NCBI GenBank assembly: GCA_015233155.1
Contig: JADFYG010000002.1
Location: 110,734 to 174,733, forward strand
DNA from: Candidatus Rifleibacteriota bacterium
GTDB lineage: Bacteria > Muiribacteriota > Ozemobacteria > Ozemobacterales > Ozemobacteraceae
Reading direction: 5' to 3'
DNA: 64,000 bases
The position numbers were made by a program, and so were the translations under genes. Below are positions 14,037-52,707 of this stretch, piece after piece. Below the pieces are notes generated by a model. That model was not told the origin of the DNA. It did not search any database and was given only the letters and a program-made list of their open reading frames with translations. Positions within the stretch are counted from its first letter, which is position 1. Each line of letters starts with the position of its first letter.

Positions 14037-14537
14037 CTAAGGAATTTTTACGATTGGATCGATCGGGGAATGAGTCATCACATGTGTGAAGTCATGCGAA
14101 AGCCCCACATCTGATTCAATCTTTTTGACCCTGTTCGCATGACGACCGCCCATAAATGCTGTAGAGAGAAAGGTTTCCAGAGTATCTATCGCGGCTTCCT
14201 CGCCAAGAATGCGTCCACCGAGTACAAGTATATTGGCATCGTTGTGCTGCCGCGAAAGTCGCGCTTCAAGAGCGGTATGACAGAGCGCGGCCCTTGCGCC
14301 AGGATGTCGGTTGGCCGCGATAGACATTCCAATTCCTGAACCACATATCAGGAGACCGAGCGTGCCGGTTTCGGCAATGATACGACGCGCAACAGCATGA
14401 GCGAAATCCGGATAATCACAAGAATCTGTGCGATCGGTTCCGAGGTCGAGCGTCTCATGCCCCAACTCTTTTATACGCCCCAATAAACGCTTTTTCAAAG
14501 CAAAACCCGCATGATCGGAGCCCGCGATAATCTTCAT
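14037..14537 (-). CDS. rpiB: Ribose-5-phosphate isomerase B
   Basis: 166 aa starting MKIIAGSDHAGFALK; RpiB/LacAB fold motifs including GICGSGIG. Confidence 0.85.
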   Translation of the reverse strand: MKIIAGSDHAGFALKKRLLGRIKELGHETLDLGTDRTDSCDYPDFAHAVARRIIAETGTLGLLICGSGIGMSIAANRHPGARAALCHTALEARLSRQHNDANILVLGGRILGEEAAIDTLETFLSTAFMGGRHANRVKKIESDVGLSHDFTHVMTHSPIDPIVKIP

Positions 14538-14696
14538 GCGTTAACCTGCCCCCAATTTTCCCCGAGATGGCTTATATTATCACGAAGACATTCGAAGAGG
14601 AAACAACGGAACCCAAGTAATCGGAGATTGGCTAATTCCTTACTTTGCGAAACTGCCTCTGATGACTCTTTTTTATCGTTCCGGGTGAAATCAAAA

Positions 14697-14797
14697 TATG
14701 GGTATAATATCAATCCCAAAATGTTTGTGCGCACTCCACTGGCGATCCACCGTATCGTCCCTGGGCACCACTTACACACGAATTTTCTGGGATTGGT
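14697..14797. repeat. Copy A of a ~100-nt palindromic intergenic element (upstream of glnA)
   Basis: The core 14717-14752 is CAAAATGTTTGTGCGCACTCCACTGGCGATCCACCG. It is flanked by inverted arms GGTATAATATCAATCCCAAAAT and ATTTTCTGGGATTGGTATAAT. It is 30/36 identical to the core at 33836-33871. Confidence 0.6.
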
Positions 14798-14917
14798 ATA
14801 ATAACTACAAATACCTATGCGTGTGTTGCCGCCAGTCTCGGCATCAGGTATCCTTGTTTCGCGACTTTCTGCTTATTAATGGTCATTGATCACAGCAAAG
14901 AGGTGAATTACATCAAC

Positions 14918-16351
14918 ATGTTCAAATCCGTAAAAGAAGTGATAGGGTTCATCAAGAAAAACGAGATCATTGCTGTCGATCTCAAATGCTGTGATCTCTT
15001 CGGACGCTGGCGACATCTCACCATACCTGCAAGATGCGTCGACGAGTCGGTCCTGAATGAAGGCTTTGGCTTCGATGGCTCCAGCTATGGTTTTAAAAAG
15101 ATCGATAAATCGGACATGATTATTTTGCCGGATATCACCACGGGCTTTATCGATCCATTCTGTGAACATCCAACGCTTTCTTTCATCTGCAACATCCATT
15201 CCACTGATTTAGACGAGCCACGCTTTGAACAGGATCCGCGCTATGTGTGCGACAAGGCTGAAGATTATCTGAAAAAGCTTGGAATAGGCGAAACCATGCT
15301 GCTTGGGCCGGAATACGAATTTTATCTTTTTGATAACGTGTCGTTCGAAGATCGCATGGAAAAAAGCGGTTTTTCCATCAATTCCCACGCCGCTAACTGG
15401 AATACCGGAAACATGGAACAGAATAATTGTGGCTATCAGATGCCACTCAAAGGCGGATATCACGGGGGCCGCCCGGAGGACCGCCATGCCGACTACCGGA
15501 CTCGCCTGACCGAGATTTTGTTCAAAATGGGCATCGGAGTCAAATATCATCATCATGAAGTCGGCGGACCAGGGCAACTGGAAATCGAGACTGAATTCGA
15601 CACTCCTCGCCGCATGGCCGATAAGACCTTGGCAATAAAATATGCAACGAAGAATCTAGCTATTCGCGACGGACTGACAGCGACATTCATGCCCAAACCC
15701 ATGTTCGGCGCCCCCGGGAGTGGCTTTCACGTGCATTTCAAGCTCCTGGATAAAAAGCGAAATGCATTTGCCGATCCGACTGGGTATGCCGGGATGAGCA
15801 AGACGGCTATTCACTTTATAACGGGGATGCTGGTTCATGCGCGTGCCCTGTCCGCATTCGCAAACCCTTCGACGAACTCTTACAAACGCCTGGTGCCTGG
15901 ATACGAAGCTCCCGTCTCGATAGTTTTTGCCGAATCGAACCGCTCGGCAGCAATTCGCATTCCCGGCTATGTTAAAAATGCCGAAGACAAACGTTTCGAA
16001 TATCGCGCAGGCGATGCGACCGCCAACCCATACCTGATGTTTGCATCCATGATAATGGCAGGAATCGATGGGGTAAAACGCGAGCTTGATCCGAAACAAG
16101 AGCGTGTGGGCCCTATCGATGGCAATTTATACGAACTGCCGGAGAGCGAGCGAAAAAAGATCGGTATACTGCCGACATCACTGTTTGAAGCGTTGGATGC
16201 GCTTCATGCCGATCACCAGTTCCTGCTTGAGGGTGGCGTTTTCACTAAACATCTGATCGAAACCTGGATCCATCGCAAACGCGAAGAAGAAGGATTGCCT
16301 GTACATTTGCGCCCGCATCAATATGAATTTATACTATCTTATAACTGTTGA
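14918..16351 (+). CDS. glnA: Glutamine synthetase type I
   Basis: GS motifs TFMPKPMFGAPGSGFHVHF, NSYKRLVPGYEAP, SNRSAAIRIP. The start was chosen at MFKSVKEV. Confidence 0.9.
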   Translation: MFKSVKEVIGFIKKNEIIAVDLKCCDLFGRWRHLTIPARCVDESVLNEGFGFDGSSYGFKKIDKSDMIILPDITTGFIDPFCEHPTLSFICNIHSTDLDEPRFEQDPRYVCDKAEDYLKKLGIGETMLLGPEYEFYLFDNVSFEDRMEKSGFSINSHAANWNTGNMEQNNCGYQMPLKGGYHGGRPEDRHADYRTRLTEILFKMGIGVKYHHHEVGGPGQLEIETEFDTPRRMADKTLAIKYATKNLAIRDGLTATFMPKPMFGAPGSGFHVHFKLLDKKRNAFADPTGYAGMSKTAIHFITGMLVHARALSAFANPSTNSYKRLVPGYEAPVSIVFAESNRSAAIRIPGYVKNAEDKRFEYRAGDATANPYLMFASMIMAGIDGVKRELDPKQERVGPIDGNLYELPESERKKIGILPTSLFEALDALHADHQFLLEGGVFTKHLIETWIHRKREEEGLPVHLRPHQYEFILSYNC

Positions 16352-16411: not shown

Positions 16412-17542
16412 ATGATAGTCGGCGACGTAATAGTTCGCGGAGCTGGTGGTGGTAAGCCGATTAAGGAATGGCGGGAAAATGGTCTTGTTACAGCAGCCAC
16501 GGGCTGGGGTGAAATCGGATCCGCAAGAATTGCCGATGTTTTTGTCACTCACGATTCGAATGGCTCCATTCTCTCGATGAAAACCTCGAGAGGTCACACT
16601 CTCCGTTGTAGTCCTGAGCAGCTTTGTTTTTGTAAATTCGATCCCATGAGCCGGCTGTATTATCTGTACTTGATGGAACGCTCTACTATGGGGTTTCGCG
16701 TAGGAATGAGCCAGGATTTGTTGCGCGATGTTTTTGCGCTGCAAAGCACGAAACTCGTTGAAAATGATGCTTCTGAGATAGTTGATCGAATCTGGATCAT
16801 AGAAGGAACCGAAAGTCTCCCGAAAGCTGTTTTCCTGGCGCGTTATGCGTCATGCAAATATGGGTTGCCCGATGTCCCGTTCACAGGGCAGCATGCGACA
16901 GCCGAATTACCGGACGAACTTTTGCGCGAATTATTCAACCGCATTGACACCCCGTCACGTGCGCATCAGTTGCTGCTGGACTCGCTGATGTTTGAAGAAT
17001 ATCCACATATTACCGTAAAACTGAATAAAAATGCGCCCACGGCAAGCAATGCTGTTCAATTCATTGTTTTCGGTGCAGCCGAAAAAGCTGGTAATTGTCC
17101 GGGTTATGCTCATCTGATACGAATCGACTCAGCCATCGAACTGAATCGTGGTGAGCATAAAGCCTTCAAGCGACGGATGAACAATCGCGGTCTATGGCAT
17201 CTGGAAGTCGCACGCGAAGAATTTGAAGAAGCACAACTTTTTGTCAAGACCCTCGCAGCCCTGGATAATCTCGAAATCATTAAAAAAATTCAGTTAACCA
17301 AGAAAGCTCCCTTCTACATTCTCCCCGCGTCTCACGTGAAGCTTGGCATGACCGTGTCTGTCGCTGGCGGACGCAGCATAGAGGAGGACACAGTGACAAG
17401 TATCACCGTTGAATCCTGGGATAATCCTCTATACGATCTTAAGACTGAGGGAATACATAATTACATCGCTGGCGACTGGGTCGTTATGTCCTACTCCGGG
17501 CAGATCTCAACTGCTCCATCACTAAAGCGGGATGTCGTGTGA
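16412..17542 (+). CDS. Free-standing degenerate intein-like (Hint domain plus central endonuclease-like region) protein
   Basis: The N-terminus MIVGDVIVRG resembles intein block A (C-L-x-G-D-T-L-I) with Cys1 replaced by the initiator Met. The C-terminus LYDLKTEGIHNYIAGDWVVMS closely matches intein block F/G (vYDLtVeG.HNFiAnGilVHN), with the terminal HN replaced by MS. The ORF ends in an ATGA overlap with the pcrA start. Confidence 0.6.
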   Translation: MIVGDVIVRGAGGGKPIKEWRENGLVTAATGWGEIGSARIADVFVTHDSNGSILSMKTSRGHTLRCSPEQLCFCKFDPMSRLYYLYLMERSTMGFRVGMSQDLLRDVFALQSTKLVENDASEIVDRIWIIEGTESLPKAVFLARYASCKYGLPDVPFTGQHATAELPDELLRELFNRIDTPSRAHQLLLDSLMFEEYPHITVKLNKNAPTASNAVQFIVFGAAEKAGNCPGYAHLIRIDSAIELNRGEHKAFKRRMNNRGLWHLEVAREEFEEAQLFVKTLAALDNLEIIKKIQLTKKAPFYILPASHVKLGMTVSVAGGRSIEEDTVTSITVESWDNPLYDLKTEGIHNYIAGDWVVMSYSGQISTAPSLKRDVV

Positions 17543-23744: not shown

Positions 23745-24139
23745 CGTTCGATTTCACAAAATATTCTAACGAACCTGTCGGAAAACTCATAAGCGCCTTT
23801 CAGAGACATATTTTTGAATTTGTACACCGAAATTCTTTAAAACCATACTTTTCCGACAAGCTCTAACGGCGCCGTTAACCATGTTCCCTGAAACGAGATA
23901 TTTGCCCATCTGCATGGGGGCATATGCGCTTACTTAAACGTCCAAATTCTACTTTTGTCATTTCGACCGAAGGGAGAAATATTGTATTTATGAGAGCTCT
24001 CACATTCGTTCGAGATGACAAGCTATTCCTAAGTAAGCGCATATGGTGCATGGGGAAGGCGACGTCGCGACGTCGCAGAAGCGAAGCTCGCGACGTTGCT
24101 GAAACAGATAAAAATAGACACAGTCATCATTTCAGCACT

Positions 24140-24154
24140 TGGCACAATGTTTGC
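24140..24154 (+). promoter_or_regulatory. Sigma54 (-24/-12) promoter upstream of hsp20
   Basis: TGGCAC-AATGT-TTGCT matches the consensus TGGCAC-N5-TTGCW with exact GG/GC spacing. It lies about 60 nt upstream of the hsp20 ATG (24214). Palindromes lie upstream: GCGACGTCGCGACGTCGC at 24060-24080 and TAACGGCGCCGTTA at 23862-23875. Confidence 0.5.
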
Positions 24155-24213
24155 TTAAACAATGGCAAGAGGAAATGACCTCAAGTATTCAAAATCCCAA
24201 AGGAGGTAAAATT

Positions 24214-24657
24214 ATGAATTTCTGGAAGTTGTTCAAAGAAATGGAGTCCCTGCAAAATCAGTTGAGTGATGTAACAAAAGAATATGGTATCCGACTTCCC
24301 AGACTCGCATTTTTGCCCGGTGTATCTGCTCGACACTTTCCGCTGCAGAATGTCGGAGAAGACCAGACTAATGTCTACGTAGAAGCTCTAGCCCCAGGAG
24401 TAGATCCAGGATCTCTAAATGTCAGCATCGTAAAGAATACGTTAACTGTGAGCGGTGAAAAAGTTAAATCCCAGATTTCTGCGGAAGATTATCATCGTTC
24501 CGAACGCGGGGCAGGAAAGTTTATACGTACCATTGAACTTCCCGTTGAAATCAATCCGGACCAGGTCTCTGCAGAATATAAGAATGGCATTCTAAATATC
24601 ACGATGGGCAAAGCAGAAGCTTCGAAACCTCGTCAGATCGAAATAAAACTCGGCTGA
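24214..24657 (+). CDS. Small heat-shock protein Hsp20/alpha-crystallin family
   Basis: Alpha-crystallin-domain features (…LTVSGEK…[14 protein letters not shown]). RBS AGGAGG lies 7 nt upstream of the ATG. Confidence 0.85.
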
Positions 24658-26176: not shown

Positions 26177-26341
26177 TTATGCTGAATTTTCTAATTAGAA
26201 ATTCAGACTCCAGTATTATAAATGTGTGTGTTCCGTTTTTTATTTTCTTGCTGTAGAATGACAAAGTAGAAATATCCTCAGTCATTCGGCCGATTATCTA
26301 CCAATGAGTAGACATTTTTGGCAAATGTGATGGAATAAAAA

Positions 26342-29825: not shown

Positions 29826-31457
29826 TTAATACCACTGTTTCAGGATACTTCCCGGGAAGTAGTGTGCAAGAATCCGGTCGTAGCTCCAACCGCGTTTAGC
29901 ACGACTCTGGGCCCCCGTCTGACACATTCCCACCCCGTGACCGAAGCCGGCTCCAGACAAGTCAGCACTTATGATGAACCCTGCCGCGTCACGATTCCAT
30001 GTCGCCACAAAGCAGGAACTGCGCAATCCACCCAACAGTTTTCGAATATTCAATTCTTTCATGATTGTTCGGGAGCCGCGCTCGCCAATAAATGTGAGTC
30101 GATATATTCGACCTGAATAACCGCGGGCAATATCTGTAATTTTCTGGATTCGTCCTACGCCGATCGCATTTTCTATATTTTTCCAGTCGATCGTTGAAAA
30201 TGTTTTCTTCCAGCGAAAATTGACTCCTCCCTCAACTGATGTGTCACCGCAGTAACAATCGGGAGGAGTATTGATGAAAACACCAACCTGCTGTTCCTCA
30301 GATAGATCCAGGTTTTGCGTGGTAACCGAATCCCAGTCCCCTTTCAGAATAGGGCTGGGAGGTGTAGACCAGACTATATCACACGCCTCACCATGCCCTC
30401 CGCAGTTACCCGAATATACCGCTCCCACAACTCCTCCGCTTGAACTAACCATGATAATTCCATGCGTTGGAGCAATTTTCTGAGCTATGATTGCTCCCTG
30501 GGAGGTTTCTCCTGCAAACACCTGACAATGTTGTTCAGAACAAATATCGAAGCCTTCGCCTGCATGAGAAGAACCTATTTTGCTCAGAATGTCTCCGCGA
30601 GCGGCAACTGCCTGGGCCTGCAAAGCACCTATTTCAGATTTTCCGGAGATTTCAGAAGGAACCACGCCAACAAGAATGTTTTCCAGCGAAGTTGTCAGAA
30701 CACAGTCGACAGCATCCTGGGCTCCCCATCGGTAAATCATCGGTCCCCGATAGGTGCGATCCTCGAATCCATGCCAGGAATAACCTGCGGCATATTCAAC
30801 TTTTTTCATAAGAACGGTTTGTGCTGGCGACAACAATAATTCATCGCCTTCCGCTTGAATCTGGCCATTTATCGTAAGAGTCAGGCGACCTTGAGAACGA
30901 CTGACGATTTCCACAAATATCCAGCTTGATTTCCCTTGGGAAGCGAGTTTATCAACCAGTGCCTGGGCGGACTGGTAATCTGAAAATACTCCCACATCCG
31001 CCTTCACATCTCGATTGTCTACAACTATCGTCTTGCCATCAGAAGCGACAAACTGCTCGCCTAAAATCATGGTATGAACTTGAAAACCCTGGGCTTCCCA
31101 TTCCGCAACGGTCTCATTTACCTTGCTCGTATCAGCTGCTCTCACTGAAGCGACCATTACATGGTAACGTTTCACTGCACGCTTTTCGAGAACACCTGAC
31201 AAATTACAATTCGCTTGCGCAGGCACTGAACCGGTTTTATCTCCCAATGCCCAGCTTCCCCCCTGTGCGCAAATGAAATCAATATTAGTGGCATATTGGG
31301 CGACTTTTATGGCAATCTGGCGCTCAGCGGCTGTAGCCGGCAAAGAGGCAACCAACAAAGCTCCAAAAATAGCATACAATGCTACTCCGAGGGTTCGGCG
31401 AAAGAGAGTATGAAATGGCAACATGCGCTGGCTCCTCAAAAAGCTCAGGATTCTCAT
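29826..31457 (-). CDS. SpoIID/LytB-domain protein (peptidoglycan-remodelling)
   Basis: YSGNCGGHGEACDIVW matches the conserved SpoIID CGGHTE-type motif. Signal peptide present; C-terminal GHGVGMCQTGA. Confidence 0.75.
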   Translation of the reverse strand: MRILSFLRSQRMLPFHTLFRRTLGVALYAIFGALLVASLPATAAERQIAIKVAQYATNIDFICAQGGSWALGDKTGSVPAQANCNLSGVLEKRAVKRYHVMVASVRAADTSKVNETVAEWEAQGFQVHTMILGEQFVASDGKTIVVDNRDVKADVGVFSDYQSAQALVDKLASQGKSSWIFVEIVSRSQGRLTLTINGQIQAEGDELLLSPAQTVLMKKVEYAAGYSWHGFEDRTYRGPMIYRWGAQDAVDCVLTTSLENILVGVVPSEISGKSEIGALQAQAVAARGDILSKIGSSHAGEGFDICSEQHCQVFAGETSQGAIIAQKIAPTHGIIMVSSSGGVVGAVYSGNCGGHGEACDIVWSTPPSPILKGDWDSVTTQNLDLSEEQQVGVFINTPPDCYCGDTSVEGGVNFRWKKTFSTIDWKNIENAIGVGRIQKITDIARGYSGRIYRLTFIGERGSRTIMKELNIRKLLGGLRSSCFVATWNRDAAGFIISADLSGAGFGHGVGMCQTGAQSRAKRGWSYDRILAHYFPGSILKQWY

Positions 31458-31610
31458 ACGAAGTTACTACATATTATACCTCGCAGAAGATAGACTCCGG
31501 AGTAAATATTTATTGTTTGAAATATTAACCCTAAATTATTCATGATTCCCCCTTGGAGGTACCCCAATATTTGGAGTATAATATTACAAGCTAAAAATAA
31601 GGAGCTGGAA

Positions 31611-32615
31611 ATGGGAAAATGGTCGCGCTTTTTTTTCCTTATTCTTTCCGTGGGCTTGTTCATGGCGATTTCTCCCCTTGAGGCAACGGAAGACTCCTCA
31701 AGTTATCAGGTCGCAGTGAATCCGGATTTTCTACTCGAGGGGCAATCCTATGGTCAGTTTGAAACGCCAGTGTACAATCTCGATCAGGAGCTGGACAATC
31801 TGCTGATATCGGTAGACATGATCAAGGCTCCCAACTCTCTGGTTCGTTCTTATGCCCGATTTTTAAATCAAAAGACTGGCCGCTGGACTCGATATCAGGC
31901 CTTTGACGGTGAATTCCATTTTGCTGATATTACTCCCGTTTCCGCTTATCAATTGATGTTTGTGGTTCGCGATCCCGACAAAGGAAAAACAGAGATTAGG
32001 CGTTTTACGGTTCAAGGGACAAAACTGGGCGAAGCAATCATGGAAGCTCTTTCTCAAAAACCAGCTCAATTCAATGCAGCCAGGGTTTGGCCAAAACCAT
32101 CGATTGTTTCACGTGAAGGCTGGAAAGCACGACCTCCCAAGGCGGAATACACCCCTCACCAGCCGCAAAGGATCGTTATACATCACAGCTGGAGTCCCAC
32201 CCAGGCACAATACACTGGCGCCGCCACTATTCGCGGAATTCAAAATTATCATATGGATGACCCAAGCACCGGGTGGATGGATATCGGTTATCATTTCCTG
32301 ATCGGCCCCGAAGGTATCATATATCAGGGTCGCCCGGAAACGGTCGTCGGAGCTCACTGTCCACCAAATACGAATATGGTTGGTATTTGCATCATCGGAA
32401 ATTACGATCCGAATGCAGACAATGTCAACGCAAAGATCGAATCATCCCTTACGAATCTTCTTTCCTGGCTGTCTTCAACCTATCACATCGATCCTCGCGT
32501 TAATTATTTTGGTCATCGCAATTTTTCCACAAAAACATGCCCGGGCGATATCGTCTATAACCGGCTTCCACTCTATGAGGAGCAAGTTATTAAAAACATA
32601 GGAGAGCTGAAATAA
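31611..32615 (+). CDS. N-acetylmuramoyl-L-alanine amidase (Amidase_2/PGRP fold)
   Basis: IVIHHSWSP, GYHFLIGPEGIIYQGRP, GAHCPPNTNMVGICIIGNY, KTCPGD. The signal peptide begins at MGKWSRFFF. Confidence 0.85.
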   Translation: MGKWSRFFFLILSVGLFMAISPLEATEDSSSYQVAVNPDFLLEGQSYGQFETPVYNLDQELDNLLISVDMIKAPNSLVRSYARFLNQKTGRWTRYQAFDGEFHFADITPVSAYQLMFVVRDPDKGKTEIRRFTVQGTKLGEAIMEALSQKPAQFNAARVWPKPSIVSREGWKARPPKAEYTPHQPQRIVIHHSWSPTQAQYTGAATIRGIQNYHMDDPSTGWMDIGYHFLIGPEGIIYQGRPETVVGAHCPPNTNMVGICIIGNYDPNADNVNAKIESSLTNLLSWLSSTYHIDPRVNYFGHRNFSTKTCPGDIVYNRLPLYEEQVIKNIGELK

Positions 32616-32646
32616 GCTCTGGTTGATTATTCGAATAAAAAAAACC

Positions 32647-32688
32647 AACACTTTTTCGGTGTTGGTTTTTTTTATCGTTATTATCTAT
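32647..32688. terminator. Bidirectional Rho-independent terminator
   Basis: AAAAAAAA-CCAACAC-TTTTTCG-GTGTTGG-TTTTTTTT, between convergent amidase (+) and epimerase (-) genes. Confidence 0.6.
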
Positions 32689-32689
32689 A

Positions 32690-33778
32690 TCAATCCCAGG
32701 ACACACCATCGATCCCATCGATTCCAAGTCCGGGAGCATCCGGGACGGTGAGCCAGGGACCATCAATTGAGATTCCACCACGCACGGGATCCTGACTGCA
32801 AAGCGATGGGCTATCGAGATCGCATTTTGTGATTATGCTTTTAGCACAAGCGAGATGAACTGCTGCGGTCACGCTCAATTTGCTCTCCATCATGCATCCC
32901 ATGAAACACTCCACACCATGGAGTTCTGCAACAGAACAGATCCTGAGTGCTGAACGCAATCCGCCGGTTTTCATGAGCTTGATGTTTACAAAGTCGGCAG
33001 CCTTCATTGCAATGATTTGCTCCGCATCGAGAGCCGAGAACACGCTTTCATCCGCAAGAACGGGCGTGGCAATCGATTCCTTAACCTGTTTCAAACCTTC
33101 TAAATCGTGCGCAATTACAGGCTGTTCCAGGAGTTCAATACCAAGATCAGCCTTCTCAAGAACTTTCATGATATTAACAGCTTCTCGCACCTTCCATCCC
33201 TGATTTGCATCTACTCTGATCAAAACGCTCGTTCCGACGGCTTCGCGTACGGCTCGAATCCGCTCTATGTCAAGCTCCGGTTCGAGTCCGACCTTTATTT
33301 TCAAAATCCTGAAACCGCGCTGCACTGCTTCCAGGCTGTCCTGGGCCATCTCCTTCGGACTGTTGACGCTGATAGTGAGATCCGTTTCCACTTTTCTTCT
33401 GAAGCCTCCGAAGAGTTTGAAAAGAGGTATTCCGTAAAGTTTGCCGAAGAGATCATGTACCGCCATATCCACGGCGGCTTTTGGACTTCCATTCTTCACG
33501 CAGGACGTGTCGAGGGCATTGAGAGTGTCTTCCAGATTGTCGATTCTTTTCCCCTTCAGTCGCGGCGCAATGTATTCATGGATTGCTCCGCGTATGCTGC
33601 CGAGAGAATCGCCTGTGATTGGCCCGGTGGGCGGTGCTTCACCGAAACCGACGACTCCGGTATCCGTGTCAACCGCCACAACAATTGTAAGAAGACGCTC
33701 GACCGTACGAAGTGCGGTCTTAAAAGGCTTTCTCAATGGAACTGAAAGAGTTCCTGTTCTTATGTTTGTTATAATCAA
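32690..33778 (-). CDS. L-Ala-D/L-Glu epimerase (enolase superfamily, mandelate racemase/muconate lactonizing enzyme family; YkfB-like)
   Basis: The N-terminus …TGTLSVPLRKPFKTALRTVERLLTIVVAVDTDTGVVGFGEA matches the dipeptide epimerase N-terminal sequence. KIKVG, VDANQGW, LEQP, DES, KLMKTGG catalytic motifs. The likely start is TTG at 33778, preceded by GGAGGA. Confidence 0.85.
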   Translation of the reverse strand: MIITNIRTGTLSVPLRKPFKTALRTVERLLTIVVAVDTDTGVVGFGEAPPTGPITGDSLGSIRGAIHEYIAPRLKGKRIDNLEDTLNALDTSCVKNGSPKAAVDMAVHDLFGKLYGIPLFKLFGGFRRKVETDLTISVNSPKEMAQDSLEAVQRGFRILKIKVGLEPELDIERIRAVREAVGTSVLIRVDANQGWKVREAVNIMKVLEKADLGIELLEQPVIAHDLEGLKQVKESIATPVLADESVFSALDAEQIIAMKAADFVNIKLMKTGGLRSALRICSVAELHGVECFMGCMMESKLSVTAAVHLACAKSIITKCDLDSPSLCSQDPVRGGISIDGPWLTVPDAPGLGIDGIDGVSWD

Positions 33779-33814
33779 GGTGTTCCTCCAGATACAAGGC
33801 CGTATTTGCAATCA

Positions 33815-33915
33815 GCGGCAGATTTTATACCAATCACAAAATGTCTGTGCACACTCTACGGGCAACCCACCGGGCGCCCCTACGACATCATTACCAACGT
33901 ATTTAGGTATAACAA
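33815..33915. repeat. Copy B of the ~100-nt palindromic intergenic element (between ykfC-like and ykfB-like genes)
   Basis: The core 33836-33871 is CAAAATGTCTGTGCACACTCTACGGGCAACCCACCG. It is flanked by ATTTTATACCAATCA (left) and AGGTATAACAAC (right, the inverted TTATACC arm). It overlaps the -35/-10 (TGCACA-16-TGgTATAAAAT) of the minus-strand epimerase promoter. Confidence 0.6.
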
Positions 33916-33926
33916 CGCGCGCCCAA

Positions 33927-35477
33927 TTATTCCAGCCTGAATTCACGCGCGGCATACAGACCTTCCATGTATGTTTTATTAGTTGAAAGGAATGTGGCAA
34001 CAAGGGGTGTCACAAGAACGCCTCTCGTTTTCGAACGTATTAGTTTTCCGCTCTCGTCCGGAGCGCTGAAGCCGGCAAAGTCATGGATTATGAAGTAATC
34101 TTTTTCATATTTCCAGAGATAGAGCATGGCATGTCCGCTCATATAGACGGGAGTCGCCGGGGGCAGACGATCGAACAGTTTTTTTCTTGCATCAAGATCC
34201 ATGTTTTCAGGTATCTCATAAGTTACGCCGAGTGCCTGCTTTCCCTGTTCTCCGGCATTTCGTGGAAGCATCACTCCCATGCTTCTGAAATTGTCCATTA
34301 TGAATGCACTGCAGTCTCGCGTGTTAAACATTCCGCCCCAACCATAACGTTGGCCAAGGAACTTGAATGCCTGGATAATTATGTTGCGCTTAGTGAGCGG
34401 AAGGAATCCGACGCGAACGTCATCCGCACGCGATATGAGACCAAGTCTCCACTCCAGTTGCCCATCTTTGCCACGTGCGGGAAGTTTGACCACATAATTT
34501 CCCGCGGGATGTTGCCCGCAAATCTCCGCAGGTATCTCATCTCGGGATGCAAGAGGGATTCTCACTCCCATATCGAGTTGAAGTTCAGAAATTTCAGGCT
34601 GGAATGGGTTGAATCCTGTGAAAACTCCCTTGCCGGTAACAACGAGAAAATCCTTCGTATCCAGATATGAAAAAAGCGTCTTACGGTCGGTCAAGGCGAC
34701 ATCACTTGCCGGAACCCAGGCACGATAATTGAATGCCTGAACAAAAAACCATTTTTTATCAGCACTTTCGTGGAGTATGGCAAGAGGTTCGACAGGGTAA
34801 AGAGCCGTTTCGACGAAACGGTCGAACTCATAGTCATCCGGCTCGGAAAAAACTCTATCGGAGCTGGGAAATGCCCTCATTTCCGTTCGTTTGACTGTGA
34901 TACCGAAACGAATGACAACGCTTTCCGGAATGGAATCCAGATTAAGAGCACGATTCAATGAATCGTAGTAACTGTCGGGGACTACTTTTCCAGTGAGATA
35001 TCTTGTTTTTGTCGGCCGGGCACTGACGCTTGCGATCATATCTCTAACTTCTTTTCCAGGCAAAACTCTACGGAATATTCGCAAGTCTTTCAGCATTTCA
35101 CACTCACGCAAACTCCTGTGGTTATATCGTTCGATTTCAATTGGCGACATTACTATTCTGTCTGGATCAGGAATACGGCTCACCCAGAAAGAGCTTTCAA
35201 GCATCTCCTGCGTCACTCCGGGAATATTCAGATCAAACTGTACGAATGTAGTCGAATGACCTTTTAAATTTTTTCTGCAAACGACATCGTCAGAGGCTCC
35301 AGCAATGACCACGCCTGAAGATAAACAGGCAAGGAGGAGAAAAAACGCCTGTCTCCAAACGCATGATCGCAGAATATGTATTTCTATTTGAGATTTTATA
35401 AACAATTTCATGTTATGCAATCGTACAGAGATTATCATATGTAAATAACTCCCTGAATCTAACTGTAGTCGGTCCAA
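33927..35477 (-). CDS. NlpC/P60 gamma-D-glutamyl-L-diamino-acid endopeptidase with N-terminal SH3b-like domains (YkfC-like)
   Basis: C-terminal catalytic Cys in GGMFNTRDCSAFIMDNFRSMG and His in SGHAMLYL. It pairs with the adjacent YkfB-like epimerase as in the B. subtilis ykfABCD cluster. Confidence 0.8.
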   Translation of the reverse strand: MDRLQLDSGSYLHMIISVRLHNMKLFIKSQIEIHILRSCVWRQAFFLLLACLSSGVVIAGASDDVVCRKNLKGHSTTFVQFDLNIPGVTQEMLESSFWVSRIPDPDRIVMSPIEIERYNHRSLRECEMLKDLRIFRRVLPGKEVRDMIASVSARPTKTRYLTGKVVPDSYYDSLNRALNLDSIPESVVIRFGITVKRTEMRAFPSSDRVFSEPDDYEFDRFVETALYPVEPLAILHESADKKWFFVQAFNYRAWVPASDVALTDRKTLFSYLDTKDFLVVTGKGVFTGFNPFQPEISELQLDMGVRIPLASRDEIPAEICGQHPAGNYVVKLPARGKDGQLEWRLGLISRADDVRVGFLPLTKRNIIIQAFKFLGQRYGWGGMFNTRDCSAFIMDNFRSMGVMLPRNAGEQGKQALGVTYEIPENMDLDARKKLFDRLPPATPVYMSGHAMLYLWKYEKDYFIIHDFAGFSAPDESGKLIRSKTRGVLVTPLVATFLSTNKTYMEGLYAAREFRLE

Positions 35478-37111: not shown

Positions 37112-37136
37112 GCTAACCGGTTAGCTGAGATTTTTT
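37112..37136 (+). terminator. Probable intrinsic terminator after the 35716-37053 gene
   Basis: GCTAACC-GGTTAGC palindrome followed by TGAGATTTTTT. Confidence 0.4.
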
Positions 37137-37262
37137 CCCTTCGGTCGAAATGACAGTATTGTTTGTCATTCCGAACGAATGTGAGGAATCTCGCTTGGCG
37201 TAAAGTCGTGAATATTTCGTCTTCTTTGGTAGTCATGTATCCGACTTAAATTTCGTCAGAGT

Positions 37263-43810: not shown

Positions 43811-44002
43811 ACTGCCTTTCCCTCTTCAAGTGCGAATATATACGAAGAATGGTTGAAATATATCTCATTGAAACAAATTACATCTCGCCCGCACACATTG
43901 CGAGGCATGGTTAAAAGCTCTGTGGTCGGGCGCGACCGCCGGGCGCGCCGCTTCGCATTTCGGCATGCCCGACCATCATGCCCTATAATCATAGTTGCCA
44001 TA

Positions 44003-45903: not shown

Positions 45904-48786
45904 TCATATACTGGATTCTTCAGAAGACAGTGCCTCAGAACCAGGCTCCGGAGAGACATCGTCATCGCGCACCCAAAGAAAGCCATTCGGCAAGGCTTCC
46001 CCAAATGATTCGGCGATTTCAGACTCTTCAAGTCTCCGAATATTGTGAAGCGGAGCGAGAAACTCTTTTTTTCGGTTATTACGCTTGAGCTGTTCGATGA
46101 TTCGACGTCGCGTCTGCTCGTCTATTTGTACCAGAAGATCTCCGACCTTGCGACCAAGTTCTTTCAGCGCCCAATCAAGATATGAGATGTTTGCCGCCCC
46201 GTGTTTTATCAATTCTACCGCCCAGTTCTGACATACTGTGCGGCTCACCAGCAACGTATGGTCAGCATACGACAATTCGCGAGCGCCGAGCCGTCCCAAA
46301 GCATATAGAGCGACTGTATCGCGACTGAACGTAGGCGGAGCTTTTGTTATCCAGGTGCCGAGTCGTTCTTTTTCGGAAACAGGAAGACGCTCGAGATGCC
46401 CAAGCAATCTCCACAGATGATTCCGCTCATGTTGCTCGACCTTGCGTACTCCTTTTTCAATACGTTTGGGAGGAAACAATGTCGATTCTATGCGTTCGAG
46501 AAGACCTCGCTGACGATCTGCCGATAAGCCGGCTGCCACACGTTTCCAGAGAATCCACCATTCCGACCAGAACTCCGTGTTCGATGAATCGAAAGAAATG
46601 GCGGTCATAAGCGCCCATAGACGATCCAGGCGTTCATCGTCAGTGACCGTGCCAAACCCGGGACGCGCACAAAAACCCAGTATGCGAAACCAGACAATAC
46701 GCGCCTCGTCCACGGTGTTAAATCTTTCATCATTGATGAACATGTCAAACAAAGCGCGTAATGTTGACAGCTCCCAGTCTTTGCGCGATACTTGGAGAAT
46801 CTCTTCAATTCGCTTGAAAACCAGATTAAAGGAAACAGGATCTTCCGCATTTTCGACGAACAATGAGTCGCAAAGTTTTTTAACTTGTGCAGCTTCACGC
46901 TTTGTCAAAGGTTGCCGGGTTTTGCGTTGCTGTTTTTTGCCAACAGCTTCATCACCAACCGCGACCTTGCTTTCGCTTCTGGAAGCAGCTTCACGCGCCG
47001 AGTCACCAATAGCGAATGCCAGCTCCCGTTGAAATTTTCCCTCTAATGCTTTGCAGGTAATCTCTAAATAGCCTGTCTCGCGCAGTTTTACGAACAGGTT
47101 TACCTGTTCGATCGCCGTCTCGCTCTTTGAAACATTTTTCTCGGCACGCATGAATAACGGTGGAAGTGATTTATGACGACGTCCATTATAACGCGCCGTT
47201 TCACCCACTTTTTCGCCTGTTGATGACACACTGTAATACAAGTAAAATGCTGAATCACGTCCGCGGTCGAAACCGAAACTTTTGCCCTCTACATGCTCCT
47301 CCCGCTCGCTCTCGGCGCCCTTCGGAAGAAGACAAAGAACCTGTTCGGGCACATGACGCACAGGGGTTGAACTCCTGGCAGTACCGATACCGAGATACAG
47401 GGAAACAGGATTCCCGCTTTGTATACGTTCTCCCAGACCGTGTCTCGCCATTCCAAACGCCACTGCGCCGGCAGCTACCGCAAGTGTCGGATGCGGATTA
47501 TCAAGGACCGTTGGAGTCTTCCCACCGCGCCATGCGGTTATCTGATCTATCAGTCTGCGACGCAAAGCAGGCGCATTCATGGTGCCACCGTTGAACAACA
47601 CGGCATCGGGCATAATACCATTATCCGCAAGAAACGCCGCAAGATGTCGGGTGACAGCCGGATCACGCGAGTAGGGCAGGCCCGCCTCAGACAGGCCGAA
47701 TGCACCTTCTTCCATGGGCCTGGTTTCGAAAGGCGTGATAGGAAAAAAGCCTTCCAGTAAGGTATTACGGGTTTCCCTGGAGCCCAATTTTTCTTTCAAT
47801 GTGCCCGCCAAAACAGAACTTCCGGCTCCGGAAAGCGTGAATGTCAGCGTATCGTCGCTATCATCAGCAAGCAGTCGCTCTTTCGCCACCTTGCTTTGCC
47901 CAAGCAGTGCGAGCCATTGGCGCGTAAGAAGTCGCTTATTTCGGTGTTTGAGCCGTGTTTCAACTTCACGAGCCACTGCCAGATCCAGATTATCGCCACC
48001 TATAAGTAAATGTGGGCCAACAGCAAGACGTGTAAATGTAAACTTGTCGTTATTCTTTTGTAACTCAGCTGCGGGAGGGGTTATCCCTATCAGAGAAAAA
48101 TCCGTGGTTCCGCCGCCGATATCTATTACAAGAACTGTTTTAACATTATCAAGGTCTGTTTTGAGAGTTTTCGCCCGACGCACAAGAAAATCATAAAAAG
48201 CAGCCTGAGGCTCTTCCAGCAAAGTCACATCAGGAATCCCCGCCGCCGTGATTGCTTCGATGGTCAAATTGCGCGCGGCGGGGTCAAATGACGCCGGAAC
48301 AGTTATTACGATGTCCTGCTTGCTGAACTCAGCATCCGGGGATAGCGGAAGCATCACGTGATTCCAGGCTTGAACTAAATGTCGTAAGAGAAATGCGCCT
48401 GCCGCGACTGGTGACAATTTCTCGGATACCGTATCGCTTTGCCACGGCAAAATTGAAGCTGTACGATCAATGCGTGGATGAGACAGCCATGATTTAGCGC
48501 TATGGATGAGACGTGACGGAACAGAAGCACCCAATTCCCGGGCAGCTTCTCCAATTATCGGACCAAAATTCCAGGGGGTATCAGGTAAAACCAGATTTTC
48601 TTCGGGAAGATACAAAAGTGAGGGAAGTGTTGGCAAAGCCGCTGTCTCGCGAGGTGAAACAAATTGTGGAATCTTCAGAAAACGAACGCCTGCCTCTGGT
48701 TCCTCGACATCGATCCAGGCAAGCGCTGATTGAGTGGTGCCAAGATCGATGCCGATCAGATAACGCACATGTTTTCGTTTAGTCAT
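45904..48786 (-). CDS. Atypical Hsp70-family protein with long C-terminal extension (960 aa)
   Basis: N-terminus IGIDLGTTQSALAWID (phosphate-1 motif), VIDIGGGTTDFSLI (phosphate-2), an actin-like ATPase fold of about 580 aa, then a 380-aa non-DnaK C-terminal region. Confidence 0.8.
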   Translation of the reverse strand: MTKRKHVRYLIGIDLGTTQSALAWIDVEEPEAGVRFLKIPQFVSPRETAALPTLPSLLYLPEENLVLPDTPWNFGPIIGEAARELGASVPSRLIHSAKSWLSHPRIDRTASILPWQSDTVSEKLSPVAAGAFLLRHLVQAWNHVMLPLSPDAEFSKQDIVITVPASFDPAARNLTIEAITAAGIPDVTLLEEPQAAFYDFLVRRAKTLKTDLDNVKTVLVIDIGGGTTDFSLIGITPPAAELQKNNDKFTFTRLAVGPHLLIGGDNLDLAVAREVETRLKHRNKRLLTRQWLALLGQSKVAKERLLADDSDDTLTFTLSGAGSSVLAGTLKEKLGSRETRNTLLEGFFPITPFETRPMEEGAFGLSEAGLPYSRDPAVTRHLAAFLADNGIMPDAVLFNGGTMNAPALRRRLIDQITAWRGGKTPTVLDNPHPTLAVAAGAVAFGMARHGLGERIQSGNPVSLYLGIGTARSSTPVRHVPEQVLCLLPKGAESEREEHVEGKSFGFDRGRDSAFYLYYSVSSTGEKVGETARYNGRRHKSLPPLFMRAEKNVSKSETAIEQVNLFVKLRETGYLEITCKALEGKFQRELAFAIGDSAREAASRSESKVAVGDEAVGKKQQRKTRQPLTKREAAQVKKLCDSLFVENAEDPVSFNLVFKRIEEILQVSRKDWELSTLRALFDMFINDERFNTVDEARIVWFRILGFCARPGFGTVTDDERLDRLWALMTAISFDSSNTEFWSEWWILWKRVAAGLSADRQRGLLERIESTLFPPKRIEKGVRKVEQHERNHLWRLLGHLERLPVSEKERLGTWITKAPPTFSRDTVALYALGRLGARELSYADHTLLVSRTVCQNWAVELIKHGAANISYLDWALKELGRKVGDLLVQIDEQTRRRIIEQLKRNNRKKEFLAPLHNIRRLEESEIAESFGEALPNGFLWVRDDDVSPEPGSEALSSEESSI

Positions 48787-48808
48787 ACCGGGAAACTGAT
48801 TTTTGGTT

Positions 48809-50635
48809 TTATTTTATAGCCTCACGAACATTAAATTCCAATTTCCAGCGACCATCGCCTCCGACTTCCCGGCACCAGATCTCAAGTGTCCCGATTTCAG
48901 TAATGGCAACCTGTAATGTGACGCTCACGGGCGTTCCCGGAGTAACTCCTTCGCGGGCAGGGAGATCCAGCTTCAGGCTGCTGGTCTCCTCCATGTCGCT
49001 GCTCAAATCATCAAGTAATTGTCCGGGTTTGTCGTCACGGCGTGCGTTGGCCTTGAAAAACTTGAATTCGACAGGACGTCCTACCATGAGACTGAAACTG
49101 CGATTCTCTATATCCGCAATAGAACCCTCTTCCATGCCTTGTGCCGCTACGCACAACGCTTTGAGTGGCGGAGTCATTCCCGGGATGGCTGGAAGTGCTG
49201 ACTCGATGCCGATATAATATGACTGGGAGACGCCTCCGCGAATCCGGATGCCTTTCCCGCAACGCGCCAGACCAAATGCCGTCGCTCCTACCGCAACGGC
49301 GCGAGTAAGATCCATGCCTTCAAGCACCTTGATTGCGGGTTTTCCCGCTTCCTTCAGCCATGAGTTTACAACCTCGATCAGACGATCGCGGAAGGGCTGG
49401 GAGAGAAAAACACCACCATTGAACAGTATCGCTTTCGGATAGCGGAATGCATCACCGGAAGGGAGTGCATTATCGCTAGTTGATGACTGATTTTTTTCGC
49501 CGCCCTGAGCCGAAAGAAATTTGGCCAAATGCCGTGTAATTGCAGGATCAGCCGCGTAGGCAAGATTAACTTCCCGAAAACCCGCACCAGTGTCTTCCCG
49601 GGGGAAATCGGACATTTTGCATGGTGGAAAGAAGCCATCGATCAGGATCGACTCAATATCTTTGCGATCAAGAGTGGTTTTCATCGTTCCGCCGATTACT
49701 GAGCTGCCGCGCCCGGAAATAACCAGCGGCTCGGATTTGAGTTCCGGGTTGTTCAGTAAATTCTCTTTGGCTTTTCTACAGGCATGACTTAGTACAAGAG
49801 TTTGCCATGTGTCGATTTTCTTCTTAGCGGCTTCGAGTTTGCTTTTTGCGTGAAATGCGAGCGTGAGATCCATGTTGTCGCCGCCGAGAAGAATGTGATT
49901 GCCTACCGCTACTCGCTTAAGTGCAAGGTCACCATTTTCTTCCTCTATCGCAATCAGGGAAAAATCAGTCGTTCCCCCTCCGACGTCGACGACCAGTACA
50001 ACGTCGCCCTTCTTTATCTGATCGCGCCATGGAGCTTCAGACTGGGTTATCCAGGAGTAAAAAGCGGCCTGAGGTTCTTCAAGCAGTGTGACATCAGACA
50101 AACCGGACTGCTTTGCCGCTTCGACGATCAAATCACGTGCAGCCGCATCGAATGAGGCTGGAATCGTTATAATGACCTGCTGGTCTTCGAGTTTGTGTTT
50201 GTTTTTATGGTTCCAGGAGGCACGGGCATGTGCGAGATATTCGCTCATTGCTTCCAGGGGCGAGATTTTTTTGGTTCCTTCCGGGGCATTCCAGGGTAGA
50301 ATCGGATCGCGTCGGTTGACGCGCGGATTGCATAACCATGATTTTGCAGAACTGATTAATCGCGCTGGAACTTCGGCACCGCGTTCCCTGGCATACTCGC
50401 CAACGATGAATGGACTTTCTCTTTTCCAGGGGAGGGCAGCTTTTTCCTGAAGGCGTTCGAATAAAAATGAAGGTAGAATATCGCGCTCTTCAACGCTTCC
50501 CTGAGCGAATTCCTGGATTAGTGGAAAAACTTTTATTTCAGGCTTCTTGTCTTCGGCCGCCGAAATAGTAGTGTGTGTAACTACCGTGTTGGTTGTTCCG
50601 AGATCGATTCCAACAATGCTTTTTGCCTGACTCAT
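48809..50635 (-). CDS. Atypical Hsp70-family protein (608 aa)
   Basis: VGIDLGTTNTVVTH, VVDVGGGTTDFSLIA; a DnaK-like NBD with a divergent substrate-binding region. It overlaps the upstream DUF2760-like gene by 4 nt. Confidence 0.85.
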   Translation of the reverse strand: MSQAKSIVGIDLGTTNTVVTHTTISAAEDKKPEIKVFPLIQEFAQGSVEERDILPSFLFERLQEKAALPWKRESPFIVGEYARERGAEVPARLISSAKSWLCNPRVNRRDPILPWNAPEGTKKISPLEAMSEYLAHARASWNHKNKHKLEDQQVIITIPASFDAAARDLIVEAAKQSGLSDVTLLEEPQAAFYSWITQSEAPWRDQIKKGDVVLVVDVGGGTTDFSLIAIEEENGDLALKRVAVGNHILLGGDNMDLTLAFHAKSKLEAAKKKIDTWQTLVLSHACRKAKENLLNNPELKSEPLVISGRGSSVIGGTMKTTLDRKDIESILIDGFFPPCKMSDFPREDTGAGFREVNLAYAADPAITRHLAKFLSAQGGEKNQSSTSDNALPSGDAFRYPKAILFNGGVFLSQPFRDRLIEVVNSWLKEAGKPAIKVLEGMDLTRAVAVGATAFGLARCGKGIRIRGGVSQSYYIGIESALPAIPGMTPPLKALCVAAQGMEEGSIADIENRSFSLMVGRPVEFKFFKANARRDDKPGQLLDDLSSDMEETSSLKLDLPAREGVTPGTPVSVTLQVAITEIGTLEIWCREVGGDGRWKLEFNVREAIK

Positions 50636-51348
50636 GCTATCTCGACCTCAGCGGGAGCAATAACGCGACCTTCCCAACCTGAAACGAGTTCCGGAAGTTT
50701 ACACTCCCTCAGGCGCCATCCGCGATGAACGAGTGTTCCACGATATGGTCCCGTGGGAGCCACATTTCCGGTAAGTTTTATGGCATGCTGATCAATGCTT
50801 GTTCCCAGATCGACTGTTTCTCCTTCGGGCGCTTCGATTATGTGCTCGATTATCAGCCGGTCCTGGAGTATTTTTTTGAGATCAGCATGAATCGGACGAA
50901 TGGCCCCCCCAAGCTCTTCATCCTGGAAAGGCGTGATGTCTTCCATCAGGAAATCGAGCAAACGCCCCTCCTTCTGCAATAAATACAGGATCTGCAATGC
51001 TATGGCGGGTGGCGCGCCGGAGTCGCTGGAAGGAACAGGTTTGGGCTCCGGTTTAGGCTCGGGCTTCGGAGTCTCTGGAGCGGGCACCGGCATCGGTTGT
51101 GGAGGAGGGGCAGGCAACGTTACTGACGCTTTAGCGCACGGTTCGTCCATCGAAAGCAAACTGGCAATGGAAGTGAACAGAGCCGCAAAGAAAAAAAGAC
51201 TGATTCCTATTGTCAGATTAATCTTATTGATCTCAATCAAAAAGAGAAGCAATTTTGCTGATGGGGCTTTGTGCAAAATTGCAGCAGTACCTGAAATGAT
51301 AATGGTTGAACCTGCGAGGGTAAGCAGGGCCATGAACTTTTTCAGCAT
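50632..51348 (-). CDS. DUF2760-like membrane protein (Hsp70-associated)
   Basis: Two N-terminal TM helices, a Pro-rich PEPKPEPKPEPKP linker, and a conserved C-terminal region (ALQILYLLQKEGRLLDFLMEDITPFQDEELGGAIRPIHADLKKIL…). The domain assignment is from memory of the family pattern, not from a search. Confidence 0.55.
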   Translation of the reverse strand: MLKKFMALLTLAGSTIIISGTAAILHKAPSAKLLLFLIEINKINLTIGISLFFFAALFTSIASLLSMDEPCAKASVTLPAPPPQPMPVPAPETPKPEPKPEPKPVPSSDSGAPPAIALQILYLLQKEGRLLDFLMEDITPFQDEELGGAIRPIHADLKKILQDRLIIEHIIEAPEGETVDLGTSIDQHAIKLTGNVAPTGPYRGTLVHRGWRLRECKLPELVSGWEGRVIAPAEVEIA

Positions 51349-51621
51349 CGCTGACCTCGTTTTTTATACAATTTGAAGCATGTTAGTATGATGGAAAGTC
51401 TTTATGCAAGTCAAGAGGTCTTCGAATCGAAAAAACTTGTCGCTCAAGGGCTTGCGTTATTTTGGTCTGTCCGGTAAGCTTATCAAAGTATATTTCTTCT
51501 AAGCATGAAGAAATTGTATTTATTATTGAGTATTGCGTAGATGTTCGTTCCTGGAAATCTCGTTTAAAAACCTAAGTTGTTCGTGTGTTTTCACACATTT
51601 TGTATCAAGTAGGGAGTAAAA

Positions 51622-52707
51622 ATGCGACGTATATTATCTGCATTGATAGGTTTTTCTCTCTTTGTCGGGACTCTTGTTTTTGTTCCGACCCTCTATGCCG
51701 GAACTCTTGAACAGTGGTCTGGCCGCCTTGAAGCTGTCGAAGATCAGGAAATCCGACAAACCCTCCAGAACAGCATTATCGCAGGTCTGATTGTCAGTCC
51801 AGCCGATTTTGATACCGCTCTCGCGTGTGCAAATTCTCGTAAAAATGGCGGAAACCCACATAACGGCGGAAACACAAATGGTGGGAGTCTGAATGAGACC
51901 ATAGCCAAATTGTCCGCTTCTATTCCTCAGCTTGATCGCGACGCAGTCGCTGCACAAAAAGGTGACGGAATGCGCGGACATCTTTTCGAACCTATAATTG
52001 GGAATCTGCCCCCCAGCTTCGAAGCAGCATACAATCTGGCCATAAAATTTGATCCGCGGTCCGGAACGAATGACGCCCCACGTCTCGACAAAGACATTGA
52101 CGCCTTTTTGGCAGTCATTGCTGACGACCCCGTTATCAAACAGGCACTGAGTTCGACCGGCACAACTATAAGCGATCTTAAGCGCAACTGGTTTGGCCCC
52201 GGATTGGGCTTTGAACACGTAATCGCAGGCGAAATCAAAGGCAGTGAAGTCAGCGGATACCATTGGTGGTATAAGTTTTATCGTGATGAAATTGCAGGCA
52301 ATGCGAAATACATATCGACTATGGGCAATGTAGGTGACCAGCATGCTTATACCGGCCAGTTCTCCTGGGACCCGGACGGCGACGGCCCGCTACCTCGTGC
52401 CGTCAAGCACAAAGGCGGCTTCATTATAGGAAATTCCGTTCAGGCAATTTTGGCTCTCGGTCATATAGCTATTGAGTCAGCCCGTAAGCTCGGAAACATT
52501 CCAGGCGCCTTCACTTTCGACGCGAATGTTAACGGTGAAACCTTTACTTGGCAATGTTACACGATTAGCGGCTCAATCCGAAGTCTTTATCCGATGGGTG
52601 GAAAAGCGGGGTTGCCGGCTCCGGCAGATGCAAGTCGAGAGTATTACGAGCTGGAAGAAGATGCAGCGAAGGCCTTGAATCACGCAGGAAGTCTTACAGT
52701 TCACTAA
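51622..52707 (+). CDS. Secreted hypothetical protein
   Basis: Signal peptide MRRILSALIGFSLFVGTLVFVPTLYAG; an RBS-like GGGAG upstream. No recognised catalytic motif (HWWYKFY…SWDPDGDG). Confidence 0.55.
   Translation: MRRILSALIGFSLFVGTLVFVPTLYAGTLEQWSGRLEAVEDQEIRQTLQNSIIAGLIVSPADFDTALACANSRKNGGNPHNGGNTNGGSLNETIAKLSASIPQLDRDAVAAQKGDGMRGHLFEPIIGNLPPSFEAAYNLAIKFDPRSGTNDAPRLDKDIDAFLAVIADDPVIKQALSSTGTTISDLKRNWFGPGLGFEHVIAGEIKGSEVSGYHWWYKFYRDEIAGNAKYISTMGNVGDQHAYTGQFSWDPDGDGPLPRAVKHKGGFIIGNSVQAILALGHIAIESARKLGNIPGAFTFDANVNGETFTWQCYTISGSIRSLYPMGGKAGLPAPADASREYYELEEDAAKALNHAGSLTVH

Follow-up and report, generated by a model that had tools for sequence, protein, structure and literature searches.

A probable family of miniature inverted-repeat elements in the intergenic DNA of a Riflebacteria genome

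The sequence that the region upstream of glnA shares with the region upstream of a dipeptide-epimerase-like gene in this Riflebacteria DNA probably belongs (we put the probability at about 0.65) to a family of small, selfish and non-autonomous miniature inverted-repeat elements of the Correia and ERIC type. In the window, by which is meant the whole 64-kb stretch of DNA that was analysed, the shared sequence is a discrete unit with inverted arms, present in three copies, all located between genes; one of the copies is an insertion into an otherwise conserved gene junction, and the unit is absent from the corresponding positions in relatives. The first-pass annotation had left open a nitrogen-responsive operator, a REP/MITE-like repeat and a small divergently transcribed RNA, and the repeat is the sole one of these three that fits the evidence. 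Most likely it is a new repeat family of an already known kind of element, specific to this Riflebacteria genome.

The 36-nt core on which the likeness rests is confirmed, and at 30/36 identity it is far beyond chance. It reads CAAAATGTTTGTGCGCACTCCACTGGCGATCCACCG in the glnA-side copy (copy A; plus strand, 14717-14752) and CAAAATGTCTGTGCACACTCTACGGGCAACCCACCG in the epimerase-side copy (copy B; 33837-33872), and so the second core exists as claimed but had been placed one base too low, at 33836-33871. A degenerate pattern covering both cores has 2 matches in the window and 0 in 100 dinucleotide-preserving shuffles. A third copy, C, had been overlooked and lies on the minus strand at 3878-3965; it was found by sensitive blastn of A or B against the window, and a profile made solely from A and B also detects it along almost its entire length (E 0.0014). 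No further copies beyond these three are detectable in the 64 kb by profile search. The weaker echoes of the element that had been suggested (26220-26235 and 51585-51600) are at chance level, given 5 matches at three or fewer mismatches when 5.9 are expected. Also put down to chance was a 12-nt match to the left arm of copy A at the stop codon of the epimerase gene (32687-32698), since about 0.7 such matches are expected and the C-terminus of the epimerase aligns to its end in relatives.

Copy A occupies 14708-14798 on the plus strand (91 nt, TATC...GGTA) and is the most intact; copy B occupies 33828-33909, also on the plus strand (82 nt, TACC...GGTA), and has a right arm about 8 nt shorter; copy C, at 88 nt, runs from TACC to GGTA when read on the minus strand. 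The unit starts with TA(C/T)CAATC and finishes with GGTA in all three, has about 50% G+C and is solitary wherever it occurs, and TA(C/T)C is kept at 6/6 ends, the arms in B and C having eroded. Within the unit A and B are 72% identical, A and C 61% and B and C 51%, so the copies are old and diverged, C being the most diverged, with a 2-nt and a 1-nt deletion relative to A. Outside the unit the 60-nt flanks agree between copies at 16-20/60 positions, as random sequences would. Homology therefore ends sharply at the unit borders, and it is a discrete unit that has been dispersed and not a block together with its surroundings. If the ends are taken as TACC...GGTA, short direct repeats of 2-3 bp stand beside the copies in A/T-rich flanks, TAA/TAA for A, TA/TA for B and TTT/TTT for C; with three copies, these are suggestive of target duplications but statistically weak, and could be chance.

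Inverted arms surround both of the originally noticed cores, as had been described. The left arm of copy A is TAATATCAATCCCAAAAT, its right arm in reverse complement is TTATACCAATCCCAGAAAAT, the left arm of copy B is TTATACCAATCACAAAAT, and GGTATAA(T/C)AAC forms the right end in A and B alike. In copy A the arms are about 22-29 nt long with the outer part matched at 13/15 positions, the imperfect pairing reaching about 14703-14805, and the profile of A and B also matches the reverse strand of copy A (E 5e-4). The right arm of copy A agrees with the left arm of copy B at about 18/19 positions and with its own left arm at about 13/15, and this closer likeness across copies argues for an end shared through recognition by a protein and not for the co-evolution of a hairpin within each copy. 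The palindromic unit claimed for both copies is strong in A, which folds at -32.7 kcal/mol (z -3.0), but weak in B, because the right arm there has lost about 8 nt; copies B and C fold no better than their shuffles (z -1.0 and -1.3), and the inverted arms are convincing in copy A only.

The three copies are found in both orientations and in unrelated gene contexts. Copy A sits between the divergently transcribed genes rpiB (14037-14537, minus strand) and glnA (14919-16351, plus strand, true start ATG 14919), in a spacer of 381 nt, glnA coding for a type I glutamine synthetase 100% identical to a protein of a Candidatus Riflebacteria MAG. Directly after glnA comes a gene for 376 amino acids (16412-17542, plus strand) that is also conserved in relatives (loci L002-L006); it matches no Pfam family, a sub-threshold intein-splicing hit (E 1.4e-4) remaining below the cut-off. 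Copy B lies in a 148-nt spacer between the stop of an SH3b and NlpC/P60 peptidase gene (33927-35477) and the start of the dipeptide-epimerase-like gene of the enolase superfamily (MR_MLE; 32690-33778), both on the minus strand, the epimerase likely starting at TTG 33778 after a GGAGGA ribosome-binding site. Where a free-standing promoter region had been assumed there is instead the spacer of a conserved co-directional gene pair, which is probably co-transcribed. The stretch 29826-35477 is a peptidoglycan-recycling neighbourhood, with a SpoIID-like gene, an Amidase_2 gene (31542-32615), the MR_MLE epimerase and the SH3b-NlpC/P60 gene, and this gene context alone lends support to the earlier YkfB/YkfC-like assignment.

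Copy C is placed between a terminator hairpin upstream (about 3985-4010, z -3.3) and a gene on the minus strand for a 741-aa membrane protein with a CAAX-protease domain (1498-3723), a protein unlinked to nitrogen metabolism, and no function is common to the three downstream genes. A terminator after copy C was considered and rejected, as the G+C-rich stretch there folds no better than shuffles. Just downstream of copy C lies one half of a perfect 20-nt G+C-rich inverted repeat, GCGGCGCGCCCGGCGGTCGC / GCGACCGCCGGGCGCGCCGC, the two halves of which (3823-3842 and 43932-43951) are intergenic and 40 kb apart, the second forming part of a stable hairpin of 55 nt (-32.6 kcal/mol); the chance expectation for a match of this kind is about 0.007. 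By simple ORF tiling the window is about 92% coding, and copies A, B and C all (3/3) fall within the non-coding 8% or so, which is the pattern that purifying selection on a selfish insert would give. Pfam searches of the window return no transposase genes, the sole recombinase is a XerC/D-like gene at 8632-9525, and no larger segment bounded by paired arm-like sites is seen in it.

The closest other glutamine synthetases among 5.8 billion proteins are only 72% identical, and so the lineage is one without a close sequenced relative. At the glnA loci of relatives (L001-L006, glutamine synthetases 68-72% identical) the region ahead of glnA does not contain the element, and a profile search of these loci gave no match; the genes that follow glnA are common to the window and to loci from two of the relatives. 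A genome scan with the epimerase protein yielded eight Riflebacteria/Ozemobacteraceae loci (L009-L016; 70-74% protein identity), and in 8/8 of these the orthologous NlpC/P60 gene, whose orthologues share the C-terminus ...IIHDFAG...GLY(A/S)AREF..., ends 17-59 nt before the epimerase start, with the element absent from the junction. The junction in the window measures 148 nt, and taking away the 82-nt unit brings it to about 64 nt. A conserved junction that is empty in all eight relatives and filled here makes copy B a lineage-specific insertion, although relatives as distant as these (70-74% protein identity) document absence and an insertion in the lineage and not recent mobility. Lack of conservation in relatives had been named in the first-pass annotation as an outcome that would speak against its proposal, and it is the outcome that the orthologous upstream regions gave.

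Wider searches gave a similar result. A profile search of 1.39 Mb of fetched loci, some 170 kb of which is non-redundant DNA of Riflebacteria relatives (some 250 kb if five overlapping loci of one genome are all counted), found no significant match. Exact-pattern scans with the A/B core gave 0 matches in species-representative genomes, JGI metagenomes and viral contigs, and blastn against plasmid and phage collections gave nothing relevant. A metagenome scan with the stretch common to A and C did return two matches, both within unrelated coding genes, for a radical-SAM enzyme and an aminotransferase, and these were judged to be chance. In the aminotransferase gene (unrelated metagenome contig L008, 1618-1644) 27 nt are identical to copy C (3901-3927, ACGATGCTCAGGGACGATGCGTGGATC); the identity exceeds the search pattern by 7 bases, the flanks are unrelated, and it too is probably chance.

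Bacterial MITEs are described as short, foldable and intergenic, with terminal inverted repeats around a core, short direct repeats, no transposase, and filled and empty sites (PMC3184786). The present unit, at 82-91 nt, is well within a size limit of about 400 bp and has neither a transposase gene nor a conserved open reading frame with a start codon; terminal inverted repeats (those of copy A), dispersal in multiple copies, three of them in 64 kb, and a filled site of 148 nt against the 17-59 nt of eight relatives are likewise present, and the 64-kb window was found to contain neither a transposase nor a parent insertion sequence having the same ends. In the MITE-like reading the family would consist of dispersed, short, non-coding imperfect palindromes with ends of the form TTATACCAATC...GATTGGTATAA, and a transposase encoded elsewhere in the genome would have recognised the terminal inverted repeats, the consensus of which is about TTATACCAATC(C/A)CA(G)AAAAT. 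We infer that the copies transposed into A/T-rich intergenic targets, presumably with the 2-3-bp duplications TAA, TA and TTT, and that drift after insertion would have left A most intact and B and C eroded.

How the ends of the unit might bear on transcription can be outlined from the junctions. The end ...TTGGTA joined to an A/T-rich flank would create extended -10-like boxes that face outwards, -35-like hexamers being located within the element. Towards glnA there is a promoter-like site at 14773-14802 on the plus strand (TACACA, 18 nt, TATAAT with an upstream TG; a 10/12 sigma-70 match), its predicted -35 inside copy A and its -10 straddling the right end, TA coming from the element and TAAT from the flank, 117 nt ahead of glnA. 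A second TATAAT box is found at the left junction of copy A (14703-14708, plus strand; the flank supplies TATAA and the element T), so that the two boxes earlier described as flanking this copy are indeed present, one at each junction. Insertion with a TAA duplication (14705-14707 and 14799-14801) into one -10 box would turn it into two TATAAT boxes, and the empty site as rebuilt, ATGGGTA-TAA-TAACTAC, would hold a single GGGTATAAT box.

Towards the epimerase gene a promoter-like site at 33822-33851 on the minus strand (TGCACA, 18 nt, TAAAAT; a 9/12 match) has its predicted -35 inside copy B and its -10 in the left flank, with TGGTATAAA overlapping the junction, 45-50 nt before the epimerase start. 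The copies may provide rpiB, glnA and the epimerase gene with additional or substitute promoters, and a copy read through inside an operon, as B could be, may add a hairpin to the mRNA. In two distant relatives -10-like boxes of the form (T)GGTATAA(T/A) also occur upstream of glnA (L001 9940-9960 and L002 9965-9980), 25-45 nt before its start codon, and the group may as a rule use extended -10 promoters of this kind.

One feature of the alignment is not expected under a plain MITE model, namely that in the 45-nt stretch beginning at the left terminus and extending to CCACCG 7/8 differences between A and B are on one codon phase. The P value of the codon-phase pattern is about 0.003-0.007, for a pattern found post hoc in two sequences and 15 codons, with about 0.003 by simulation for the phase excess and about 0.0065 over six frames for there being a single amino-acid change in the plus frame. 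That frame reads YQSQNVCAHSTG(D/N)PP in A and B, the matching minus frame reads GG(S/L)PVECAQTF(W/C)D, and both are open across the whole element in these two copies. The pattern is unexplained and hints that the end of a coding element gave rise to the unit, and on such a view the left arm and core would once have evolved within an open reading frame, an origin that we regard as possible but unlikely. It could be the 3' end of a transposase gene running into the inverted repeat of the parent insertion sequence, in the minus frame, or else, in the plus frame, a palindromic element encoding a peptide, of the sort known from Rickettsia (RPE). The former overlaps with the MITE explanation because a MITE derived from an insertion sequence would keep such a fragment, and the stop that copy A has inside its arm, that is inside the terminal repeat, in the minus frame is the arrangement expected for a transposase gene ending in the right repeat. 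However, neither the remainder of the unit nor copy C, where frameshifts and a stop occur, shows the phase pattern, and both conserved frames lack a start codon. Searched with a composite of the peptides from the two frames, 5.8 billion sequences, the annotated glutamine synthetase of this MAG among them, gave no protein at E <= 10, in a search in which a match of about 14 residues would be borderline. It is distinctly unlikely that the element is a mobile promoter cassette, co-opted by this lineage, from which glnA, rpiB and the epimerase gene take their working extended -10 promoters, or that it descends from, or still acts as, a peptide-encoding palindromic element; if the latter were true, the 15 codons of the plus frame, with almost only synonymous changes, would represent an RPE-like element outside Rickettsia.

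The position of copy A in a divergent promoter region with -10-like boxes towards rpiB and glnA, the promoter-like site that the left end of copy B makes before the epimerase start, and the location of the best -10 matches in the three arms facing nearby genes are what would be expected of a cis-regulatory module kept by selection, with the core as the binding site of a regulator, nitrogen-responsive or other, and the arms as back-to-back promoters. Such a module is nevertheless very unlikely, given that no relative examined has the element conserved ahead of its glnA or epimerase orthologue, that the third copy stands ahead of an unrelated gene, that copy B is in an operon spacer with its core in the orientation opposite to that of copy A, and that the core has no dyad symmetry common to the three copies, the differences following codon phase and not a binding-site pattern. 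Scans for the GlnR/TnrA box (TGTNA-N7-TNACA) and for sigma-54 sites gave 31 and 45 near-matches in the window, respectively, and none within the three intergenic regions (14538-14918, 33779-33926 and 3724-4027). With no GlnR/TnrA box or sigma-54 site, an unrelated third gene and absence both upstream of glnA and at the NlpC/P60-epimerase junction in relatives, the nitrogen-responsive operator first envisaged is left without support. A structured-RNA family, made up of small RNAs or cis-acting leaders with the long hairpin as the functional unit, is highly improbable. Copy A can form a 100-nt hairpin, A and C each stand ahead of a gene that has their own orientation, and a central hairpin around CCAC(C)G is possible in each copy, but B and C fold like shuffles, copy B lies antisense with respect to its operon, neither a promoter nor a terminator is conserved at the unit borders, nor is a pair of the two around the copies, and the hairpin after copy C is not terminator-like. 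The comparison with Rfam that had been suggested gave no hit over the whole window at the gathering score, for known families including the glnA/glutamine riboswitch, and only chance-level hits for the three copies at E <= 10 (E >= 0.86). When the structure of copy A is projected on the three copies 73% of cells are paired, compared with 72% in shuffles, and the compensatory pairs number 2 when 2.0 are expected. Without an Rfam match, covariation or any folding excess in B and C, the small-RNA reading also lacks support.

Further features of the window deserve mention in their own right. A second and unrelated intergenic repeat family is present at 23956-24026 and 37132-37192, in two long spacers and in opposite orientation; its modules TGTCATTTCGACCGAAGGGAGAAA and GAG..CTCACATTCGTTCGAGATGACA are inverted relative to each other and form hairpins, with arms 80-96% complementary, and the family looks REP-like. 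A perfect sigma-54 -24/-12 consensus, TGGCACAATGTTTGCT, is located at 24140-24155 on the plus strand, at the 5' end of a called Hsp20 ORF (24139-24657), the real start of which is probably further downstream than called, in which case hsp20 would be driven by sigma-54. An operon on the minus strand at 45904-51348 codes for a DUF2760 protein and two divergent ATPases of the Hsp70/actin fold, one of 960 aa with DUF3731 and one of 608 aa, together a non-canonical Hsp70-like system. The 361-aa protein encoded at 51622-52707 on the plus strand contains an endoribonuclease domain of the XendoU family (E 1e-14), which is familiar chiefly from eukaryotes and nidoviruses.

Taken as a MITE-like family, the element removes a false lead, since the sequence likeness between the glnA and epimerase regions would reflect common descent of a repeat and not a shared nitrogen regulon. 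It would be a previously undescribed interspersed repeat in the uncultivated phylum Riflebacteria, for which hardly any mobile-element biology is on record, and it would illustrate on a small scale that a -10 box can be duplicated by an insertion into it, with promoters re-created on both sides. Repeats of this sort matter for assembly breaks in MAGs, for promoter annotation and as strain markers, and no new mechanism is opened by them.

Among known element families the Rickettsia palindromic elements (RPE), reportedly described by Ogata et al. in 2000, are said to be about 100-150 bp long and to keep an open reading frame across their copies. The codon-phase pattern and the frames open across copies A and B recall them, but RPEs are inside protein-coding genes, whereas A, B and C are all intergenic and no protein with the peptide was found. 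With the REP/BIME elements and their RAYT transposases the present unit has in common that it is intergenic, repeated and hairpin-forming. REPs, however, are 20-40-nt G+C-rich hairpins, usually clustered and without terminal inverted repeats about 85 nt apart, in contrast to the solitary Riflebacteria unit with its 50% or so of G+C. On inspection of the sequence a REP/RAYT element was rejected, as was an integron attC site, and a template/variable repeat pair of a DGR was discarded because the differences are not adenine-specific.

Closer parallels are provided by the Correia elements (CREE/NEMIS) of Neisseria, which generate promoters at one or both of their ends and of which some copies are co-transcribed as hairpins (PMC2649163, PMC3184786). 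They are likewise units of about 100-150 bp with terminal inverted repeats and a core, intergenic, in both orientations and at TA-containing targets (PMC2649163, PMC3184786), but they belong to another phylum, the Riflebacteria copies are far more diverged, and promoter activity of the latter is a prediction. The ERIC/IRU elements of Enterobacteriaceae are old and diverged units of about 127 bp, imperfectly palindromic along most of the sequence, with TA at both termini and no known transposase, and are also intergenic, often in transcribed regions including operon spacers (PMC3184786); the Riflebacteria unit is shorter (82-91 nt) and has kept the whole-length palindrome in copy A only. RUP of Streptococcus pneumoniae and Nezha of cyanobacteria, at 107-170 bp, resemble it in their terminal inverted repeats, in their filled and empty sites and, if the direct repeats beside the present copies are real duplications, in their short target duplications (PMC3184786), although for these a parent insertion sequence with matching ends has been identified and for the present unit none was found in the 64-kb window. 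The likeness to Correia, ERIC and RUP elements is one of architecture and probable behaviour, by analogy with their published descriptions and not by sequence, and membership in any of these families is not claimed. The size of the unit, its inverted repeats and foldability, the putative target duplications, the predicted promoters at its ends and the logic of filled and empty sites all match what has been published for MITEs and Correia elements, and this agreement speaks for a MITE-like family.
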